Of a stretch of 35,477 nt of DNA, positions 4,607 to 21,593 are shown in pieces (the stretch's first letter is position 1; every line of letters begins with the position of its first letter). Origin of the DNA: a virus; UHGV virus genome UHGV-1967114. The stretch is one strand, 5' to 3'. The translations under genes were made by a program, and so were the position numbers. The notes under the pieces are model-generated. The model had not been told where the DNA came from. It worked only from the letters and a program-made list of their open reading frames with translations, and made no database searches.

Positions 4607-4785
4607 AAAATTGCCCCTGAACCAAAATCCCCTAGATTTCACATCCCATTTTTGCCCCTGAAACCCACTATTTTTGCCCCTGAAATTCTGGGAAACAGTG
4701 ATTTTGCCCCTCATTTTTGCCCCTGAAATGCCAATAATTGCCCCTGAAAATCTAATTTTTGCCCCTGAAATTTGCCCCCGAAAAG
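4607..4785 (+). repeat. Array of 8 direct repeats, consensus TTTTTGCCCCTGAAA, spacing 13-41 bp, in a 1.37-kb non-coding region; candidate iterons / protein-binding array
   Basis: Copies at about 4611, 4652, 4674, 4704(variant CTCA), 4717, 4738, 4759, 4772(variant CCCCCGA), all same orientation. Confidence 0.8.
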
Positions 4786-7127: not shown

Positions 7128-7135
7128 TAATTTTT

Positions 7136-7164
7136 GCCCCTGAATTTCAGGGGCTTTTTGTTTT
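7136..7164 (+). terminator. Intrinsic terminator built from one copy of the TTTTTGCCCCTGAA motif paired with its inverted partner (GCCCCTG-AATTT-CAGGGGC + T-run)
   Basis: 7-bp GC stem, 5-nt loop, TTTTTGTTTT immediately downstream of stop at 7127. Confidence 0.65.
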
Positions 7165-12232: not shown

Positions 12233-14233
12233 ATGCTTAAATTTCGCCGCGATCTTAACGGTTACGGTGGAGTTATTAACGAAGGGCAGAATGATCAATA
12301 CGAATTTGAAATTGCTTTCTCCAGTGAACAGCCTTATCAGCGCCAATTCTGGGATGAGCAAAATCAAGAAATGGTGGTATTAGATGAAATTCTGGTACAT
12401 ACACCGGAAGCGGTTGATCTGTCTCGTCTGAATAATAACGCTCCGTTGCTGTTCAATCATAATTTCGATAATCACATTGGTGTCGTTTGTAACGCTCGAA
12501 TCGATGCGGATAACGTAGGTCGTGCTCTGGTTAAATTCTCCAAGCATGGCACTTTGGCTAATGATATTCGTAATAAAGTCATTGAAGGTACGATGGAAAA
12601 AATTTCTGTCGGTTATGACATTAAAGAATATCACATCGACTACACCAAAGGACAATTGATTGTTACTAAGTGGGCACCCTATGAACTCTCATTTGTCACC
12701 GTTCCCGCAGACGATACGGTCGGTTTAAATCGCTCTCTAAATACTATCACAGTTAATTTGGAGGCTAAACGCGATATGACTAAAGAACAAATCGAAGAAA
12801 TCAAAGAAGAACAAGAACCCGCTCAGGTTGAAGAAACTCCGGTAGAAGAAATTAAAGAACCGGAAGTTGAAGAAACTCAAGAGCGCCAAGTTGAAGAGAA
12901 TAAAGAAAATGAAAATCTCGAAGACGGAAAAGACGCTGAACATCCTGAAAGTGTTGATGATGATAGTTCAACTGTTCGGGAAGAAGAAGTAAAAGAAGAA
13001 CGTGAAGCCGCTCCGGTTGAAGAAGAAAAAATCGAAGAAGTGGCTGAACGTTCCGAAGAAGACGAATTAGAAATTCGCGAGATCGCTCGCGAGCTAAATA
13101 TTAACGACGAAGAATTAGAACGCGCATTGGCAGTTAAAGACATGACGCCGGAAGCATTCCGCACTAAGGCACTAAATAACATTACCAATGCTCAACGTAA
13201 TAACGAACAAATTAAGGACTCTAAAATGGAAAAAACTTTTGACCTGAACAACGTAATTCGCTCTCTGGTAGATGGTGCTGCTCTGGGTGCTAACGAAGCT
13301 GAATATTCCGCTATGGCTGCTGGTGCTGCAATGCAGCGTGGTCGTGCTGCTCGCGGTGGCTCTGTATTCGTTCCGGCTGCTGCTCTGCGTGCTGCTTCCG
13401 AAGGTAACACCAAAGCTACTCTGACCGCTGTAACTGACGAAAAACTGCTGACCGAATCCTATGTTGAAATGCTGTTGCCTCAGAGTGTTTTAGGCCGCCT
13501 CGGTGTGACTGTTCTGTCTGGTCTGAATGCTCCGATTGCTGTACCGAAAATGACTACTTCCAGCGTTGATGCTTTCGGTTTCGTTGATGAAAACGGTGCT
13601 GCACCGGAAAGCAAAGCTGAATTTGCAAACGTGAAAATGGCTCCGAAAACTTTTGCTGGTGGCAACCCGATCAGCCGTCAGTCTCTGAAAACTGTTCCGA
13701 ATATTGCTACCCTGATCACCGATCACATTAACAAATCTGTTCGGATCAAACTGGAACAACTGATTCTGTCTGATAAAGAAAATGCTCGTGGTCCGGCTGG
13801 TCTGGTTAAGCAACTGGTAGACGCGGGTCGCGTTACTAAGAAAGCCGCTTTCTCTTACAAAGACTTCCTGAAAGAAATTGCAGCACTGACCGACGCTGGC
13901 GTTCCTGCTCAGGCGATCAAGTTTGCGATGAGCGGTGCAACTGCTGCTGAACTGGAATCTACCCTGAAAGATAACGGCGTTTCCGGTTATATCATCGAAA
14001 ACGGCAAACTGGCTGGTTACGAAGTAGTTACTTCTGGTGTTATCCCGGCAGACCACATCGTTCTGGGCGCGTTCGACGGTATCACCATTGGTGAGTGGGG
14101 CGGTCTGGAACTGGATATGGACGACACTACCTACCGCGCACAGTCTGCTATCGTTCCGCGAATCTGGGTAGACCTGGATTATGTTGTTACTCAGCCGGAA
14201 GCCCTGAAAGTTCTTCACATCTCCGCTGAATGA
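12233..14233 (+). CDS. Prohead protease - scaffold-like acidic coiled-coil - major capsid protein (HK97-fold) fusion
   Basis: N-terminal motif LLFNHNFDNHIGV...SVGY...ELSFVTVPADD resembles HK97-type prohead protease (recollection); residues ~180-330 are E/K-rich; C-terminal ~330 aa capsid-like. Confidence 0.7.
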   Translation: MLKFRRDLNGYGGVINEGQNDQYEFEIAFSSEQPYQRQFWDEQNQEMVVLDEILVHTPEAVDLSRLNNNAPLLFNHNFDNHIGVVCNARIDADNVGRALVKFSKHGTLANDIRNKVIEGTMEKISVGYDIKEYHIDYTKGQLIVTKWAPYELSFVTVPADDTVGLNRSLNTITVNLEAKRDMTKEQIEEIKEEQEPAQVEETPVEEIKEPEVEETQERQVEENKENENLEDGKDAEHPESVDDDSSTVREEEVKEEREAAPVEEEKIEEVAERSEEDELEIREIARELNINDEELERALAVKDMTPEAFRTKALNNITNAQRNNEQIKDSKMEKTFDLNNVIRSLVDGAALGANEAEYSAMAAGAAMQRGRAARGGSVFVPAAALRAASEGNTKATLTAVTDEKLLTESYVEMLLPQSVLGRLGVTVLSGLNAPIAVPKMTTSSVDAFGFVDENGAAPESKAEFANVKMAPKTFAGGNPISRQSLKTVPNIATLITDHINKSVRIKLEQLILSDKENARGPAGLVKQLVDAGRVTKKAAFSYKDFLKEIAALTDAGVPAQAIKFAMSGATAAELESTLKDNGVSGYIIENGKLAGYEVVTSGVIPADHIVLGAFDGITIGEWGGLELDMDDTTYRAQSAIVPRIWVDLDYVVTQPEALKVLHISAE

Positions 14234-14254
14234 ACTCCTGTAGAACCATCTTAA

Positions 14255-14362
14255 CCTTCCCCCGATTTGGGGGAAGAAAATCTGATTCCTGAACCGGAAG
14301 AAGAATCCCAGACGGTTAAGGCGAAAGCCACAGCTAAAAAACAGCGTAAAACTAAAGAATAA
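14255..14362 (+). other. Pro/Glu-rich + Lys-rich coding module (PSPDLGEENLIPEPEEESQTVKAKATAKKQRKTKE) in the same frame as the capsid gene but separated from it by TGA and TAA; homologous to the extension after the tail tube gene
   Basis: Frame and 15-nt identical core GGCGAAAGCCACAGC shared with 20176..20301; synonymous differences preserve K/R residues. Confidence 0.4.
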
Positions 14363-14367
14363 TAATT

Positions 14368-14397
14368 AGCCCTGCCGTTATTGGCGGGGCTTTTTTG
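14368..14397 (+). terminator. Intrinsic terminator (AGCCCTGCC-GTTATT-GGCGGGGC + T6)
   Basis: Strong GC stem and T-run; near-identical copy at 20307..20336. Confidence 0.75.
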
Positions 14398-15132: not shown

Positions 15133-15966
15133 ATGAATATTACACAAGATAACTTAGATATTTTCACTGGATCACATGTTGAAGTGTCGATCTCTAACCA
15201 GATAGACAATCAGGTCGACTTTTTCGATCCTAGCTTTAGTTCTATGGAGAACATCGCAGCATTCCCTACGCTAACCGAATCCACAGAGATAGAAACTCTG
15301 GAAGAGTACGATCAGGACGCTACGGGGAAACTTGCTGGTTATCGTAGACTGGAACCGACAACACTCACATTAAACCGTGTTCTTGACGATGAACATCAAG
15401 CAATGTTGATGAAAGCGGTAGAGGATAAAACACCTTTACGCTTCCGTATGTTCTATGTTGTGAACTCTGGCTATAGTGCTGCTAACACAGGGTACTTTTG
15501 TATATTCGATGCTTACGTCACATCACATAAAACCCGTGGTAGTGATAACAAAGCTGTAACACTGGAATTTAAACTTGAACCAGATGGCGGGATTCTAGCA
15601 AGGGGTATAGCGACCGAGGGAAAAATTCTGCGACAAGGGGATTATGGCGTAGGCTCAGGCGTTAGCCCATTCACCGGACCTATTGATAGTGAATCTCTGA
15701 CAGGAAACCGCTTCGTAACCTACAAAGGAACGGCTAGCACTAACCCTTATGGTGCTGATACATCATTAATTCACCTTCAAGCTAATGAGCATGGCGCATG
15801 GCAATTAACCTGTAATACTTCCGGTGCACCACGTTTACGTGTCCGAAATATTCAGGAAAACGGTCGCTCTGAATGGATCAAGGTATATTCCACCAATGAG
15901 AAACCGACACCTAGCGAAATTGGCGCAGTGGCTAAGACTGATAGAATCGACTTCGGTGAGTATTAA
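15133..15966 (+). CDS. Tail-tube-like paralog (N-domain related to 19702..20175) with extra C-terminal domain carrying KPTPSEIGA motif
   Basis: Shared DIFTG...LTL...ED.T...F....VT.EF...DG pattern with the gpV-like protein; C-terminal motif shared with tail fiber. Confidence 0.5.
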   Translation: MNITQDNLDIFTGSHVEVSISNQIDNQVDFFDPSFSSMENIAAFPTLTESTEIETLEEYDQDATGKLAGYRRLEPTTLTLNRVLDDEHQAMLMKAVEDKTPLRFRMFYVVNSGYSAANTGYFCIFDAYVTSHKTRGSDNKAVTLEFKLEPDGGILARGIATEGKILRQGDYGVGSGVSPFTGPIDSESLTGNRFVTYKGTASTNPYGADTSLIHLQANEHGAWQLTCNTSGAPRLRVRNIQENGRSEWIKVYSTNEKPTPSEIGAVAKTDRIDFGEY

Positions 15967-16041: not shown

Positions 16042-19000
16042 ATGCAATCAATCCAATTTAAACGCACACAAACGGCTGGTAAAAAACCAACGCCGGAACA
16101 ATTACAGGTCGGTGAAATCGCTATTCAGATGGCAGACCATGTAATTTACACCAAAGACAAAAATAACGCAGTAGTTCAAATCAGCGTTTCCCCAGAAAGT
16201 CATAATGCTTTAAACACGAAAGTAGACAATAACAAAACTAGCACTGACCGTGTTATTGCTTCCAACAAACAAGAGGCCGCTAATAATCTGGCTAGTGCTA
16301 AAGCTGAACTGAATCAGACTATTACCACGAAAGATACAGCGACCAATAAGCGCATTGATGCTACCAACACCACTGTTAGTAACTTAACCCAGACAGTTAC
16401 GGCAAATAAAACCGATGCCGACACTAAGATCAATAACCTTACGGGGACCGTATCTGCGAATAAGACCGCAATTGAAAGAACCGTTGCCGCAAACAAATCT
16501 GATGCAGATAGCAAACATGCAGCTTTAACGAAAACGGTCACTGACAATAACACCGCGATTAACAACAAGGTTAATACCACTAACACCAACGTTAGCAACT
16601 TAACTAAAACTGTTACTGCAAATAAAACCGATGCAGATAACAAAATTTCTAGCTTAACTAGCACGGTTGCAGCTAACAAGACAGCGATCGAAAAGACTGT
16701 TTCCGACAATAAGAAAGACGCGGATACTAAGATTACCAATCTTACTGGCACTGTTAATAGCAACCATACCGCAATTAACAACAAGGTAGACCAGAATAAA
16801 TCTTCTACTGATGCCGCAATTGCAGCCGCTAACAAACGAATTGATGGTATTGAAGGTAGCAATGATGCTCTTTACATCAAGAAGAATACCAATACTAAGC
16901 ATGGTGGGTATCTGTTAAGCAAGACAGCTAACTATCTGGAAGACCAGACATCACGAGATCTTAACTACTTTGGTGCTTTCCGTACCAATGGTCAAGATGG
17001 ACTCATGGATCTAACTCTTAACGTTCCTCACTCTTCCGGTAAAGCGCACGGTCGCGGATTTACTTTCCGTTATGCATCTGGTGGATCTCGTGTTGAAACC
17101 TATGGTTTTGATAGAGAAGGACAGAAGAACTTTAGCTATAAGATGTATCACGAAGGTGATAAGCCGACTCCTGGCGAGATTGGTGCATACACCAAAGCCG
17201 AAGTTGATAAGATGTTTGTTAAAAACGTCGTTATGTCTGTTCCCAATTCTAGCGAAAACGTATCTGCATATTTCAAATTGGCAACCGCAACAATTCCACA
17301 AAACGGGCGTAGTGTGTTTTTCCGTATTCATGGTGGTAATGGTTACAACGTTACGGCATATGATCAGGTTGACGTAGTAGAAATTCTTCTGCGTAGTGGT
17401 AACGATAGACCTAAAGGTCTTAACGTAATTGCATACCGTAGAAATACAAACAAAGATTTTGAGGTATTTGCTGTCAATACTTCCGGTGATAACTATGATA
17501 TCTACGTGAAATATCAGCGTTATACCGATAACGTTATTGTCGAATATGGGAAATCTGTTTATGTAAGTTTGACGGTTTATGATACGCCGGAAGCCACGTT
17601 AATTAAACCTTCCGTTGGTGTTATCGGTGGTCGCAACGTAACTCTTTTTAATACTGAAAATAAACGTGGTGTGTTAAGTTTTGATGATAACACACAAAAC
17701 AGCTATGACATTGTTCATCTAAGTAATGATAAAGGTACTGGACGGAAATATATTCGTAAATTCCGTAGCAACTATAACGAAATGGTTTGGCATGAAACCG
17801 TTCAGGGTGCTGTATATCGTCTTGCTACTGGTGCTACAGATTCTACAGAAGTTATTAGAATTGATTCTAATAGTGCAATACCGGGTAATTATAAAGGATA
17901 TGTAATTACTGGTAAAATGGAATTGCACGGTAGTGGTAATGCGATGACTTTACATCGACAGACTGGTCAAGCTGCATATATGGCGTGGTGGGATCGTCGT
18001 GATGGTAAAAACCAACGTAGTGGTTATATCGGTCATGCGGATGGTACTAGTGATGGTTTTGTGTGGCGTAATGATGTTGGTGCTAACTCATTTGATTTGG
18101 AAGGTAGTGGACAAGTAAATTTGACTACAGGAAAAACAAAAATTGTATATACCAATGGTCAATATTATTCCGCTAACGCTGATGCATTCCGTATGATTTA
18201 CGGTAAGTATGGTGCATTCTGGCGAAATGATGGTGGTAAAGTTTATCTGTTGTCTACTGCCGAAAATGATAGATTTGGTGGTTGGAATACATATCGACCT
18301 TTTATCTACGATCTTACTTCCGGTAACGTTCAATTAGGTGGTGATGGAAACGAAGATGTATTAACTCTAGAACGCGCAAGCAAGGCCGCTCGATTCTCTG
18401 GCAACGCTTACATCAAAGGTCAACATTTAACATTTGATGCTGGTGCTGGACAATCCCGCGATTACTTCCGGTTTAACCATTGGGGCGATAGTAATAACGC
18501 TCGCGATAACATCCTACAGATTGAAGACAGTCAGGGTGCACACTTTACCACTGAACGCGCTATGGGTACTGGCAATATCACAGCACGTTTTAAAGGCTTC
18601 GTGCGTGTAGAATCCGGTGAGATTGCCTTTGATGCTAATCGTGGATCTGCGTCTCAATTTACCTTACATACATGGGGTAACGAGCAACGCAAACAGGTTT
18701 TTGAATGTAAGGATGCTACTAGTTATCATTGGTATACCGAACGTACAAACGGTGGAACTGGTCCTATCCTGTTCTCTGTTGCTGGTACATTAAAAACTGC
18801 GAGCAATATACAGGTTGGCGGTGCTGATATTGAGTTTCGTCGCAGTGGTAATAAGCATTTATGGTTTAGAGATCCGAACGGTTTAGAATTAGGTTTGATG
18901 TACTGCGATGATGCTGGTGTTATCCGCTTCCGTGGTCAGAAACAAGGTCAAACTTGGAAACTTGCTGATAAAATGATTCATCTTGAGGCGGGGACTGTCG

Positions 19001-19644
19001 GCGGGTCTGATAAAGGTTTGATTCGTGGTAATGTTGCTGGTGGTAGCTGGGCTAGCTGGCGTGATCGTTCTGCCGGAATCCTCGTAGACTGTCCGAACTC
19101 AACCGATTCCGCTCATAACATCTGGAAAGCGACTCATTGGGGAAAATATCATATTGCGGCAATGGGTGTGCATGTTCCTAGTGGTACTATTACCAATGCT
19201 TTAGCTCGCCTAAACGTTCACGACGCCAACTTTGACTTTAACGCTGCGGGTGATTTTAGCGCAGGTCGTAACGGTAGCTTTAACGATGTTTACATTCGCT
19301 CTGACTCCCGTTTGAAGATTAACAAGGAAGAATTACAGGACGGTGCATTAGAGAAAGTAAACTCACTGAAAGTCTACACCTACGATAAAGTTAAATCTCT
19401 TTCCGATGACACGGTGATTAAACGCGAAGTAGGTATTATTGCTCAGGATCTGGAAAAAGTATTGCCGGAAGCAGTAGGTATTCAATCCACAGAAGATCCA
19501 GAACAACCGGAAGCAATCAAGACTATTTCTAACTCTGCTGTTAATGCCTTGATTATTAAAGCTATGCAGGAAATGGACGCCAAATATAAAACACAGATCG
19601 AAGCATTACAGAAAGAAATTGCCGAACTGAAAGCAACTAAATAA
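16042..19644 (+). CDS. Tail fiber protein (1200 aa) with N-terminal repetitive shaft and C-terminal intramolecular chaperone (peptidase S74-like) domain
   Basis: Repeats TVTANKTDADTKI...; C-terminal YIRSDSRLKINKEELQ...LKVYTYDK matches endosialidase-type chaperone signature (recollection). Confidence 0.75.
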   Translation: MQSIQFKRTQTAGKKPTPEQLQVGEIAIQMADHVIYTKDKNNAVVQISVSPESHNALNTKVDNNKTSTDRVIASNKQEAANNLASAKAELNQTITTKDTATNKRIDATNTTVSNLTQTVTANKTDADTKINNLTGTVSANKTAIERTVAANKSDADSKHAALTKTVTDNNTAINNKVNTTNTNVSNLTKTVTANKTDADNKISSLTSTVAANKTAIEKTVSDNKKDADTKITNLTGTVNSNHTAINNKVDQNKSSTDAAIAAANKRIDGIEGSNDALYIKKNTNTKHGGYLLSKTANYLEDQTSRDLNYFGAFRTNGQDGLMDLTLNVPHSSGKAHGRGFTFRYASGGSRVETYGFDREGQKNFSYKMYHEGDKPTPGEIGAYTKAEVDKMFVKNVVMSVPNSSENVSAYFKLATATIPQNGRSVFFRIHGGNGYNVTAYDQVDVVEILLRSGNDRPKGLNVIAYRRNTNKDFEVFAVNTSGDNYDIYVKYQRYTDNVIVEYGKSVYVSLTVYDTPEATLIKPSVGVIGGRNVTLFNTENKRGVLSFDDNTQNSYDIVHLSNDKGTGRKYIRKFRSNYNEMVWHETVQGAVYRLATGATDSTEVIRIDSNSAIPGNYKGYVITGKMELHGSGNAMTLHRQTGQAAYMAWWDRRDGKNQRSGYIGHADGTSDGFVWRNDVGANSFDLEGSGQVNLTTGKTKIVYTNGQYYSANADAFRMIYGKYGAFWRNDGGKVYLLSTAENDRFGGWNTYRPFIYDLTSGNVQLGGDGNEDVLTLERASKAARFSGNAYIKGQHLTFDAGAGQSRDYFRFNHWGDSNNARDNILQIEDSQGAHFTTERAMGTGNITARFKGFVRVESGEIAFDANRGSASQFTLHTWGNEQRKQVFECKDATSYHWYTERTNGGTGPILFSVAGTLKTASNIQVGGADIEFRRSGNKHLWFRDPNGLELGLMYCDDAGVIRFRGQKQGQTWKLADKMIHLEAGTVGGSDKGLIRGNVAGGSWASWRDRSAGILVDCPNSTDSAHNIWKATHWGKYHIAAMGVHVPSGTITNALARLNVHDANFDFNAAGDFSAGRNGSFNDVYIRSDSRLKINKEELQDGALEKVNSLKVYTYDKVKSLSDDTVIKREVGIIAQDLEKVLPEAVGIQSTEDPEQPEAIKTISNSAVNALIIKAMQEMDAKYKTQIEALQKEIAELKATK
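16366..16797 (+). repeat. In-gene tandem coding repeats (two ~216-nt units with ~33-nt subrepeats) in tail fiber shaft
   Basis: Near-identical stretch ACTGTTACTGCAAATAAAACCGATGC at ~16390 and ~16611; explains spurious minus ORF 16314..16862. Confidence 0.6.
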
Positions 19645-19701: not shown

Positions 19702-20175
19702 ATGTCTCAGCAATTTAAAGATATTTTTACTGGTGGTCTGGTAAGTATGTTCTATCACGCCGATACCACTAACACCAATCTTGCACATGAAAGCTATGAA
19801 GAAATTAAAGAGTGTGCTGGTTTTCCTGAAACTGGTATCGAGCGCGGCACTGTAGAAGTTAAATCCTTCTCTTCTCAGTATAACCGTAAGCTGGTAGGTA
19901 AACTGAACGTTCCTGATCTGACTCTGACCGTTAACTACATTCCTGGTGATGCGGTACACGAGAAGCTCATTAAAGCTGCCGAAGACGGTACTCGAATTCA
20001 GATTAAGATTGAATACTATGTAGATGCAGCAAAACAGACTGGTATTCGCACAGCTTTCAACGGCTTCATCTCTAAAGTTGCTATGAACGGTGGCGATGAA
20101 GAAGTGGTAACGAAAGAGTTTACCTTTGCTGTTGATGGTGCTCCGCTGAAACAGCAAATCTTCACTGCCGGATGA
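19702..20175 (+). CDS. Major tail tube protein (lambda gpV-like N-domain)
   Basis: Pattern PGD...L....EDGT...I......F.GF......G..EVVT..F...VDG resembles gpV; RBS TAAGGGGTAA; position upstream of chaperones and tape measure. Confidence 0.7.
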   Translation: MSQQFKDIFTGGLVSMFYHADTTNTNLAHESYEEIKECAGFPETGIERGTVEVKSFSSQYNRKLVGKLNVPDLTLTVNYIPGDAVHEKLIKAAEDGTRIQIKIEYYVDAAKQTGIRTAFNGFISKVAMNGGDEEVVTKEFTFAVDGAPLKQQIFTAG

Positions 20176-20301
20176 ACTAACGAAGAACTTCCTTTACCAG
20201 AACCGGAACCACTGCCGGAACATGAAGCGGTGGTGATTCCAGAAGTAGAAGAAGTTACGGCGAAAGCCACAGCAAAACGAGGCCGCAAGGCTAAGAATTA
20301 A
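20176..20301 (+). other. 41-codon in-frame extension directly after the tail tube UGA stop (TNEELPLPEPEPLPEHEAVVIPEVEEVTAKATAKRGRKAKN); candidate readthrough product
   Basis: Same frame as 19702..20175 with a single intervening TGA; homologous to 14255..14362. Confidence 0.45.
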
Positions 20302-20306
20302 TTTTA

Positions 20307-20336
20307 AGCCCTGCCTTAATGGTGGGGCTTTTTTAT
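20307..20336 (+). terminator. Intrinsic terminator (AGCCCTGCC-TTAAT-GGTGGGGCT + T6)
   Basis: Paralogous copy of terminator at 14368..14397. Confidence 0.75.
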
Positions 20337-20349
20337 TGGAGTAATCAAA

Positions 20350-20856
20350 ATGGCAAATGTCGTTAAAGTTCCTGGCTGGATCGGGTCATCTGCTGTATCG
20401 GTGACGGGTAAGCGATGGATGAAAGAAGCATTAACAGCTTTAAAAGTTCCGGCTCCGCGTAATATGTCGGCAATGGCTGGTCGTGGTATGGATACGGTTG
20501 TAGCTACTGCATCGTGGTCTACTTCATTGGGTAATAACTGGGGTGTAACTGCTTCAAACTATCCTGTTTCCGGTATGCAAAGCAAAGGATCTATGGAGAA
20601 CCCCGAAAACGTGGGCGTAGGGCGTCTGGTTGGCGTTATCGTTGGTCAATTCAATGGCGGTACTCCTACTATGGCTGTATATCTCCAGAACGGTAGAGCG
20701 GGGAATATAACCGTTAATTTGGGTGGTGCTGCTGTCACTGTTCCTTATAACAGTATGCAAAGTGGTTTTCATTACTATTGGTTAAGCAATCCTCCGGCTG
20801 CTTTCCTAACAAATATTAAGAAAACTGGCACTAAGCAGACTTTGAAAATCTCTTAA
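20350..20856 (+). CDS. Hypothetical Gly/Ser/Thr-rich protein inserted between tail tube terminator and tail chaperone genes
   Basis: 168-aa ORF with RBS GGAG; no lambda counterpart at this position. Confidence 0.5.
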   Translation: MANVVKVPGWIGSSAVSVTGKRWMKEALTALKVPAPRNMSAMAGRGMDTVVATASWSTSLGNNWGVTASNYPVSGMQSKGSMENPENVGVGRLVGVIVGQFNGGTPTMAVYLQNGRAGNITVNLGGAAVTVPYNSMQSGFHYYWLSNPPAAFLTNIKKTGTKQTLKIS

Positions 20857-20901: not shown

Positions 20902-21210
20902 ATGAATCTGAATGAAATGCTGAAAGCTCTTTCTCCGAAACGTGAATCTTTAACCCTCGGCGGATTTACGTTCTATGCTCGCCCTATGTCGGTGCAAGAA
21001 TTTAATGAACATGTTTTCAATACTGATAAAAAAGACCGCGATGAACGCTCTATTCTTCGTTGTATTGAAGATGAAGACGGTAAGCCAGTATTTGAATCTA
21101 TTGAACAAGTTAAGGCACTGTATACTAGCGTCCGCAGCGAATTAATCGGCTTAGTTGCTCAAGCATCATTGATGAAAGATGCGGCGGTAATTGAAAACGA
21201 GGTAAAGTAA
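20902..21210 (+). CDS. Tail assembly chaperone (gpG-like by position)
   Basis: 102-aa ORF between tail tube and tape measure genes, overlapped at 3' end by a -1 frame ORF. Confidence 0.55.
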   Translation: MNLNEMLKALSPKRESLTLGGFTFYARPMSVQEFNEHVFNTDKKDRDERSILRCIEDEDGKPVFESIEQVKALYTSVRSELIGLVAQASLMKDAAVIENEVK

Positions 21211-21593
21211 ACCCGCTCTTGAATTTTTATTTTCGGCAAATGATGCGTCGGGGCTTGAGTAAAGATGAGATGGATAATATGCCAATTACGCTATTTTGGG
21301 CGTTGCATATATTCGATACATATCTTGAACCACAAAGCCCCCTATATCAAGATGCGCGACATGCACAGTCGATGTATTACATGCACGTTACATCTCCTAA
21401 CATGACTCGTGAATGGTTGAATAAAATCAATGTTAACCAATTCCGAATGATTAAGGACGACAAGCAATTTAAAACGCAAGAAGAAATAAAAAAAATTGCT
21501 CGTAAGAAAGAGGAAGAACGTAACTCTGCTTTGGTTGATAGTTATTTCGACGCTTCATTATTACAAAAGCTCAAGAGCGGTCAATTGGGGTAA
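21195..21593 (+). CDS. -1 frame extension ORF (gpT-like); probable G-T fusion via programmed -1 frameshift within 21195..21210
   Basis: Frame-0 ORF opens at 21195 (after TGA 21192-21194) and overlaps the last 5 codons of the G-like ORF; ends TAA 21591-21593, 3 nt before tape measure ATG. Confidence 0.5.
   Translation, partial: KRGKVNPLLNFYFRQMMRRGLSKDEMDNMPITLFWALHIFDTYLEPQSPLYQDARHAQSMYYMHVTSPNMTREWLNKINVNQFRMIKDDKQFKTQEEIKKIARKKEEERNSALVDSYFDASLLQKLKSGQLG

Follow-up and report, generated by a model that had tools for sequence, protein, structure and literature searches.

Bacteriophages can make a minor, C-terminally extended form of a structural protein by recoding at the end of its gene. 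To our knowledge, virion proteins made by stop-codon readthrough are known in bacteria essentially only from Qβ-like RNA phages, and recoded long forms of capsid and tail proteins in double-stranded DNA (dsDNA) phages are known only from frameshifting. Here we describe a candidate for programmed readthrough in a 35,477-nucleotide stretch of viral DNA, UHGV virus genome UHGV-1967114 (the whole of which we call the window), where the gene for a lambda-like tail tube protein ends in UGA and its reading frame then stays open for a further 41 codons. Our literature searches found no report of stop-codon readthrough yielding capsid or tail-tube variants in a tailed phage.

The coat/A1 system of Qβ resembles this locus in several respects. 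In both, a UGA stands at the end of a major structural gene, a Pro-rich flexible linker comes first in the extension, the host is E. coli, and few-percent readthrough yields (in Qβ) or is predicted to yield (here) a minor virion protein extended at its C-terminus; the two share the hexanucleotide UGAACU (PMC13517186). Qβ, however, is a single-stranded RNA levivirus whose 196-amino-acid extension is folded and essential for infection, whereas our locus lies in a tailed dsDNA prophage, and its extensions are 28-45 amino acids long, predicted to be disordered, present on two structural proteins, and evidently dispensable in some relatives.

Three groups of dsDNA phages offer further parallels. 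T7 and T3 make a minor, C-terminally extended capsid protein by recoding (10A/10B), which is low-copy and non-essential (PMC5009743), but they do so by a -1 frameshift near the end of gene 10 and have no paralogous extension on the tail. In the Listeria phages PSA, A118 and A500 (Cps and Tsh) and the Lactobacillus phage A2, the capsid protein and the major tail protein are both extended by recoding at the 3' end (PMC5009743); there, +1 or -1 frameshifts occur at CCC_UGA or at slippery heptamers and the characterised extensions are immunoglobulin (Ig)-like domains, whereas here the frame is unchanged and the extensions are two short, homologous, low-complexity tails. Finally, SPP1 gp17.1* and lambda gpV carry an extra C-terminal module outside the gpV-fold tube, in SPP1 on a subset of subunits (3:1), and these modules are thought to be weak cell-surface binders that are not needed for tube assembly (PMC8718954). 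They are folded FN3 or Big_2 domains, fused constitutively in lambda and added by frameshifting in SPP1, in contrast to the 41-amino-acid, predicted disordered peptide that lies behind a UGA in the window.

The tail tube gene and its in-frame extension

The features at the 3' end of the tube gene are as follows.

19702-20172, plus strand: tail tube protein gene, 157 codons, lambda gpV N-domain type (from profile, fold and gene order)
20173-20178, plus strand: candidate leaky stop with its context, UGA ACU (invariant in relatives; equals the Qβ hexanucleotide)
20176-20298, plus strand: 41-codon in-frame extension, TNEELPLPEPEPLPEHEAVVIPEVEEVTAKATAKRGRKAKN (open in relatives; frame-0 signature)
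20186-20256, plus strand: predicted extended RNA stem-loop, a possible stimulator (minimum free energy z-score of -3.7 without the terminator)
20299-20301, plus strand: TAA stop of the extension (from the sequence)
20306-20336, plus strand: intrinsic terminator with a 10-bp stem, a 5-nt loop and a T-run, 4 nt past the extension stop

The open reading frame (ORF) at 19702-20175 encodes 157 amino acids and its product is a lambda-like tail tube protein. It matched phrog_158 in a profile search (E=1.3e-20) and scored 28.2 bits against PF16460, just below the cut-off of 28.4. When its AlphaFold2 (AF2) model was compared with known structures by Foldseek, it matched the lambda tube entries 8k36_A (E=1.5e-6, target TM-score (TMt) 0.63) and 7t2e_A, with E ~1e-6 and TMt 0.62-0.63 across both, and it resembled other siphophage tubes as well (E ~1e-6). 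The genes for the tail assembly chaperone and the tape measure follow it downstream. Thus the gpV-like identity proposed in the initial annotation of this DNA, made from the sequence alone, was borne out by profile and fold. A domain search of the tube product gave no match to a C-terminal Ig-like (Big_2) domain of the gpV kind.

The initial annotation had also placed the tube stop at TGA 20173-20175, followed in the same frame by 41 open codons up to the TAA at 20299-20301, and both coordinates and sequence agreed. As it had described, the extension consists of a Pro/Glu-rich linker followed by a Lys/Arg-rich end and then a strong terminator: the 10-bp hairpin at 20306-20330, with its TTTTTT run, is the best plus-strand terminator of the region. 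In an AF2 model of the readthrough product, residues 159-198 had pLDDT values below 50 and lacked secondary structure; the tube extension is thus predicted to be disordered.

The chance of finding one 41-codon open stretch is roughly 0.1, and another gene of the window has 42 in-frame codons past its stop. A lone stretch of this length is therefore not beyond chance, and its significance comes only from comparative data. In the window, TAA ends 29 of 33 genes; within the structural module, TGA is found only at the capsid and tube genes.

The initial annotation had noted a homologous module in frame after the capsid gene. The features there are the following.

12233-14233, plus strand: protease-scaffold-major capsid protein fusion gene (phrog_617, E=1e-92; PF04586 and PF05065)
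14234-14359, plus strand: paralogous extension, in frame with the capsid gene and homologous to the tube module
14256-14276, plus strand: invariant 8-bp hairpin CUUCCCCC-GAUUU-GGGGGAAG inside the long capsid extension (from the alignment of relatives)
14368-14397, plus strand: intrinsic terminator after the capsid extension (repeat family D5; homologous to the tube terminator)

The capsid gene stops with TGA at 14231-14233, followed by ACT, and its module ends with TAA TAA at 14360-14365, ahead of a terminator of 10 bp and TTTTTT (14368-14391). The module is thus present and in frame, as claimed, but an interruption had been missed: in the window, an in-frame TAA at 14252-14254 cuts it after six codons. 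This codon is GAA in all of the approximately 45 relatives examined, and the lesion is common to the window and two identical E. coli genomes (PI7 and 24AR0357). Consequently, only the tube copy can be extended here, and the capsid protein of the window could gain at most six residues.

Conservation and coding signature of the extensions

For comparison, we gathered 23 IMG/VR loci through the tube protein, 79 and 65 through the capsid protein, and 9 metagenome loci, together with contigs encoding more distant tube homologues and three further E. coli genomes. The junction was invariant at the tube gene: all 36 tube genes with an extension carry TGA ACT (24/24, 8/8 metagenome loci, 3/3 E. coli genomes and the contig of the protein P0001). 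Similarly, every capsid gene with an extension (approximately 45 loci) ends in TGA A(C/A)T. The extension, for which the initial annotation had proposed a check in related phages, is open and in frame at each of these 36 tube loci, in four length classes (36, 39, 40 or 41 codons). The capsid extensions fall into five length classes (28 or 42-45 codons) and are intact at each of the approximately 45 related loci, the window copy being the exception. By contrast, orthologues that lack an extension have TAA or TAATAA directly before the terminator. This set comprises the tubes L027-L032 and L314, the tubes and capsids L033-L035 (Salmonella) and L036-L038 (Hafnia), and 46 of 47 distant capsids; one extension-less orthologue departs from the pattern with TGA TAG. 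Together, the invariant TGA-ACT, the open frame and the TAA of extension-less orthologues support the UGA readthrough that the initial annotation had suggested for the tube stop.

The extensions also change length in a manner expected of coding sequence. Because indel lengths in codon-based alignments would be circular evidence, we used nucleotide-level alignments only, and found that every gap length is divisible by three (tube, 6 and 15 nt; capsid, 48, 3, 6 and 9 nt). None of the unique extension sequences (22 tube, 25 capsid) contains a stop or a frameshift. Across all of the approximately 80 extension copies, a secondary stop occurs in one and a frameshift in none.

These counts bear on the possibility that the module is the decaying remnant of a once-fused C-terminal tail, severed by an ancestral nonsense mutation to TGA, whose expression is no longer meaningful. 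Distant relatives do have short basic tails fused to capsid or tube, the window capsid copy has gained a second stop, the Hafnia locus L036 shows a similar GAA-to-TAA change, and the extension has been wholly lost from some tubes. Decay, however, is difficult to reconcile with a single secondary stop in approximately 80 copies, with the signature of purifying selection described below, or with a TGA-A(C/A)U junction that has persisted independently at both genes and in the mosaic variants; moreover, the exact Qβ leaky context would be unlikely to persist. We therefore regard this explanation as quite unlikely.

Substitution patterns indicated the frame under selection. The most divergent pair of tube extensions, L313 and L008, differ at 24 sites, which fall 6/4/14 by codon position. 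The ratio of non-synonymous to synonymous substitution rates (dN/dS) for this pair was 0.33 in frame 0 (p=0.004), whereas the two alternative frames gave 1.37 and 1.01. When the changes among all unique sequences were counted on a minimum spanning tree, synonymous ones were in excess in both the tube (p=1e-5) and the capsid extension (p=0.007). The bias by codon position and the synonymous excess, both restricted to frame 0, are, in these alignments, a coding signature of purifying selection.

The same data speak to whether the extension could be a separate small gene, that is, a free basic peptide made from an internal start or by termination-reinitiation at the tube stop. An in-frame GTG GTG does occur at 20230-20235 in the tube extension, and at the Edwardsiella and Proteus capsid loci a GTG that overlaps the TGA (GTGA) heads the -1-frame tail ORF. 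Nevertheless, the three E. coli extension classes share no conserved start codon or Shine-Dalgarno sequence, and the first 14 codons past the UGA, which contain no start codon, evolve mainly synonymously (4 synonymous versus 1 non-synonymous change between L313 and L008). In addition, the extension never leaves the frame of the upstream gene, a restriction to which an independent ORF would not be subject. A separate gene is thus very improbable.

We also looked for the pattern that the initial annotation had named as evidence against its proposal, namely a terminator that is kept while the ORF is frameshifted, and found the reverse: L312, L313 and L317 keep the extension ORF and have a different terminator.

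One apparent variant at the junction was rejected. A 198-amino-acid "fused" tube protein, P0001, with W at the position of the stop, might have been taken for a sense-codon variant; however, the underlying DNA (L026, ENA contig k141_243218) has TGA, and the fusion is therefore an artefact of gene calling with genetic code 4. Code-4 miscalls of this kind could be mined for further readthrough candidates. PGAP calls the short proteins only.

Searches beyond this family gave little. An IMG/VR scan for the 14-mer GGCGAAAGCCACAG returned mostly chance matches among the matches listed and, after filtering, the true modules among them stood only behind capsid and tube genes of this prophage family. 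A profile scan of species-representative genomes found no relative, and tblastn of the extension peptide against cultured phages found nothing. We also considered reading the tail as an AT-hook; this was rejected, as the GRP core is limited to capsid variants of the ...KKVGRPPKAK type and lacks conservation.

Recoding context, RNA structure and tails of sister lineages

The tube stop and its context, UGAACU, are identical to the leaky hexanucleotide of Qβ coat/A1, as checked in record NC_001890. In Qβ, UGAACU is listed as leaky, with 3-5% readthrough in E. coli (PMC13517186), and ribosome profiling of E. coli found UGA readthrough to be prominent with the K-12 variant of release factor 2 (RF2) (PMC5373646). 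Two other routes past a UGA were rejected. The prophage contains no tRNA genes, which rules out a phage-encoded suppressor tRNA. An Rfam search returned no family at the gathering threshold or at E<=5, and therefore no selenocysteine insertion sequence (SECIS) element and no known small RNA; furthermore, the stems downstream have neither loop nor sequence in common between the three extension classes. Selenocysteine insertion at the UGA was dismissed on these grounds.

The RNA downstream of the stop is predicted to be structured. In all three extension classes a stem begins at nt 14, that is, 10 nt past the UGA. Compared with shuffled controls and with the terminator left out, the tube extension had a minimum free energy z-score of -3.7; the long and short capsid extensions scored -3.3 and -5.5, and the folding z-scores overall ranged from -3.3 to -5.7. 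In the tube, two U-A pairs of the outer helix AACUUC/GAAGUU are replaced by A-U through compensatory change in the L008/L017 type, and the recombinant L013 breaks this helix. The short capsid hairpin shows a compensatory U-A to C-G change in L019. Capsid extensions of the ...KKVGRPPKAK type (L005, L008, L166) contain, further downstream, the small hairpin GGUGG-GACGU-CCACC, which also occurs as GGCGG...CCGCC, a compensatory change that indicates an RNA-level constraint overlapping the coding constraint. As the compensatory events are few and the L013 helix is broken, we consider a stimulatory role for the stem-loop 10 nt downstream of the UGA plausible only. The 8-bp hairpin CUUCCCCC-GAUUU-GGGGGAAG of the long capsid extension, in which the sole variation seen lies in the loop (U to C), was rejected as the stimulator because it starts 22 nt past the UGA, which is too far; the larger capsid domain that begins at nt 14 is the better candidate.

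Structure of this kind raises the possibility that the module is an untranslated, structured 3' untranslated region (3' UTR) and terminator cassette, which stabilises or terminates the abundant capsid and tube mRNAs and has spread by recombination together with its own TGA, its frame being inherited and its product absent. Such a cassette would fit the folding z-scores, the base pairs kept through compensatory changes, and the terminator common to both copies. It would also fit the mosaic variants seen among relatives, which point to frequent recombination and gene conversion, and the greater conservation of extension and terminator at "synonymous" sites than of the neighbouring genes. It does not predict a codon-position bias and synonymous excess in frame 0 only, nor length changes that are all multiples of 3 in nucleotide alignments, nor an ORF that outlives the replacement of its terminator. 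RNA structure likewise leaves unexplained why the junction stop is never TAA or TAG, and similar tails are fused or frameshift-linked to the same proteins in other lineages. For these reasons, we judge an untranslated cassette unlikely.

These other lineages provide a view of the tail apart from the UGA. In sister lineages, an Ala/Pro/Glu linker with a Lys/Arg end is joined to the same kinds of protein in different ways. The tube protein P0023 of Edwardsiella tarda has the tail fused without a stop (...PLATYHMNVIPEAVAAKEK), and the capsids L277, L279, L281 and L302 have a directly fused tail; several capsids end in ...EKGTPAEAKAAKQ or similar. At other capsid loci (Edwardsiella L237/L241, Proteus L239, phage DCP80 L024, and IMG/VR L278, L282, L275 and L284), a Lys-rich tail ORF is found in the -1 frame. 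It follows immediately on A-rich runs at a conserved ...EK motif, and frame 0 reaches its stop 2-4 codons further on. Canonical slippery heptamers are in phase in L278 (A_AAA_AAG) and L282 (A_AAA_AAA), the others having GUA_AAG or GAA_AAG, and a hairpin is present downstream. From their sequences, these arrangements are candidates for programmed -1 frameshifting. In contrast, the window and the whole E. coli clade have the extension in frame 0, and not in an alternative frame behind a slippery site. Since related genes acquire such tails by fusion, by -1 frameshift or past an in-frame UGA, the tail appears to be a protein feature whose dosage is set by recoding. Phage extensions in general seem indifferent to the mode of recoding (PMC5009743).

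The spacing between the stops and the terminator suggests a further alternative, in which readthrough is real and the peptide irrelevant: ribosomes that reach the TAA would occlude the terminator hairpin and so couple translation to transcriptional readthrough into downstream genes. Indeed, at both genes 3-4 nt separate the extension stop from the terminator stem, as compared to 7-8 nt between gene stop and terminator in extension-less relatives. Yet the acidic, Pro-rich linker and the basic end are kept between variants that have diverged in nucleotide sequence, and across access modes; the terminator is exchangeable; and lambdoid late transcription is normally antiterminated. Masking of the terminator by readthrough ribosomes may act in addition, and would leave the conservation of the peptide unexplained. 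As a complete account of the locus, we give it little credence.

Proposed mechanism, genomic setting and implications

Our results suggest that the UGA ending the tube gene is a programmed leaky stop, which would give a few subunits a disordered, cationic surface tail; we assign this reading a probability of about 0.68. Programmed UGA readthrough itself is well supported by the comparative evidence, and all of the computational tests able to refute it favoured it. In the mechanism that we propose, most ribosomes would terminate at the UGA to give the 157-amino-acid tube subunit, and a small fraction, on the order of 1-5%, would insert an amino acid and continue for 41 codons to give a subunit of 199 amino acids. 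The inserted residue would presumably be Trp, via near-cognate tRNA-Trp, as in Qβ, where the UGA is decoded as Trp. Each such minor subunit would end in a disordered, acidic linker of Pro and Glu, capped by a Lys/Arg-rich peptide. In relatives, where the paralogous module stands behind the same signal on the major capsid gene, head and tail would both display a few copies of one and the same cationic tail.

In the Foldseek comparison, the tube fold ends where the external Ig-like domain of lambda gpV begins (PMC8718954), and because the extension starts at this point, we infer that the tail projects from the virion surface. A handful of cationic tips per virion would be expected to bind anionic surfaces, and thus may serve as a low-copy element for electrostatic adhesion or decoration; the tail would be a functional analogue of the Ig-like and FN3 domains that other phages add by frameshifting. 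In T7, the C-terminus of the major capsid protein 10B can be displayed and is surface-exposed, as phage display illustrates. The sequence comparison itself shows the conserved UGAACU, the conserved in-frame ORF, its frame-0 signature and the TAA of extension-less orthologues; readthrough and its level, the inserted residue, the role of the stem-loop, the surface exposure and the function of the tail are put forward here as inferences.

Several observations weigh against this reading. The capsid copy of the window is broken by a TAA, so either that extension is dispensable or the prophage is decaying, and several relatives lack a tube extension entirely; together, these observations imply that the tail is not essential. 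UGA-A is an efficient stop with wild-type RF2: with the RF2-B variant, the readthrough product of nudL was undetectable and termination at UGAA was rapid (PMC5373646), such that wild hosts may read through the UGA inefficiently in the absence of a stimulator. Pooled over the E. coli clade, dN/dS was 0.41 for the tube and 0.75 for the capsid extension, which is only weakly protein-like, and neither these pooled values nor the within-clade codon-position counts were decisive; the signal came from L313 and from tree-based counting. The argument from synonymous differences in the initial annotation was therefore weak within the clade, and became convincing with the divergent L313. Moreover, "synonymous" diversity was 0.15-0.19 in the extensions as compared to 0.29-0.32 in adjacent genes, pointing to nucleotide-level constraint or gene conversion. 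Finally, the relatives are closely related and represent few independent evolutionary events, and hence a phylogenetically shallow sample.

The window is an E. coli prophage, 100% identical to that of strains PI7 (NZ_CP074033, prophage near 0.75-0.78 Mb) and 24AR0357, and relatives of the prophage were found in 58 of 5426 complete genomes. Searches by megablast and tblastn found no close relative among cultured phages; they returned only T-even fibre similarity and the distant Escherichia phage DCP80, the only named relative, with a tube identity of 45%.

The tube gene stands between a T-even gp37-like tail fibre gene (16042-19644) and a gp38-like adhesin gene (20350-20856, PF21721). Within the fibre gene, positions 16909-19575 have approximately 80% nucleotide identity to gp37 of the RB49 group, and the fibre has a C-terminal chaperone region of the Peptidase_S74 type. 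In an Edwardsiella relative, the order is fibre, gp38, tube. The gp37- and gp38-like genes that flank the tube gene suggest that a temperate siphophage-type prophage and lytic T4-like phages have traded modules for receptor binding. A second tube-like paralogue, of 277 amino acids, is encoded immediately before the fibre gene, at 15133-15966; its N-terminal part matches phrog_158 (E=1e-8) and its C-terminal part matches tail-fibre profiles. It may be a tube-like collar or fibre-anchoring protein, and not the main tube. A PDB sequence search with both tube paralogues of the window gave nothing useful.

Two further features of the window are recorded here. Downstream, a tail assembly chaperone pair of the G/GT type is formed by an ORF at 21219-21593 in the -1 frame of 20902-21210, open from 21195; the shift site is likely A_AAG just before the UAA (GUA_AAG_UAA, 21202-21210). 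In the early region, positions 4620-4780 contain six or seven closely spaced direct repeats, TTTTTGCCCCTGAAA, at spacings of 21-22 or 43 bp, with one more at 7130 (7130-7152); these look like iterons or operator-like binding sites.

More broadly, a family of temperate enterobacterial prophages of the siphophage type may set the copy number of a shared polycationic surface tail on head and tail by interchangeable means: direct fusion, -1 frameshifting at sites such as A_AAA_AAG or, in the E. coli clade, UGA readthrough at UGAACU stimulated by the stem-loop 10 nt downstream. We offer this wider proposal tentatively, and would put it below even odds. If true, programmed readthrough of a stop codon would be described here for the first time in a tailed dsDNA phage, and its stimulation by RNA structure would be a rare case among bacteria. 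If UGA readthrough holds as predicted, readthrough and frameshifting would be linked, with related phages arriving at one appendage by three routes, and the locus would lend itself naturally to testing whether RNA structure assists UGA readthrough in E. coli. Long forms of this kind are missed by annotation pipelines, and one metagenome pipeline miscalled the gene with genetic code 4. Phage engineering could also benefit from a C-terminal display site that is low in copy number, tolerated in nature and present on head and tail alike. Because UGA readthrough varies with the RF2 allele, temperature and cyclic AMP (PMC5373646; PMC10570021), the decoration of the virion could depend on the state of the host.

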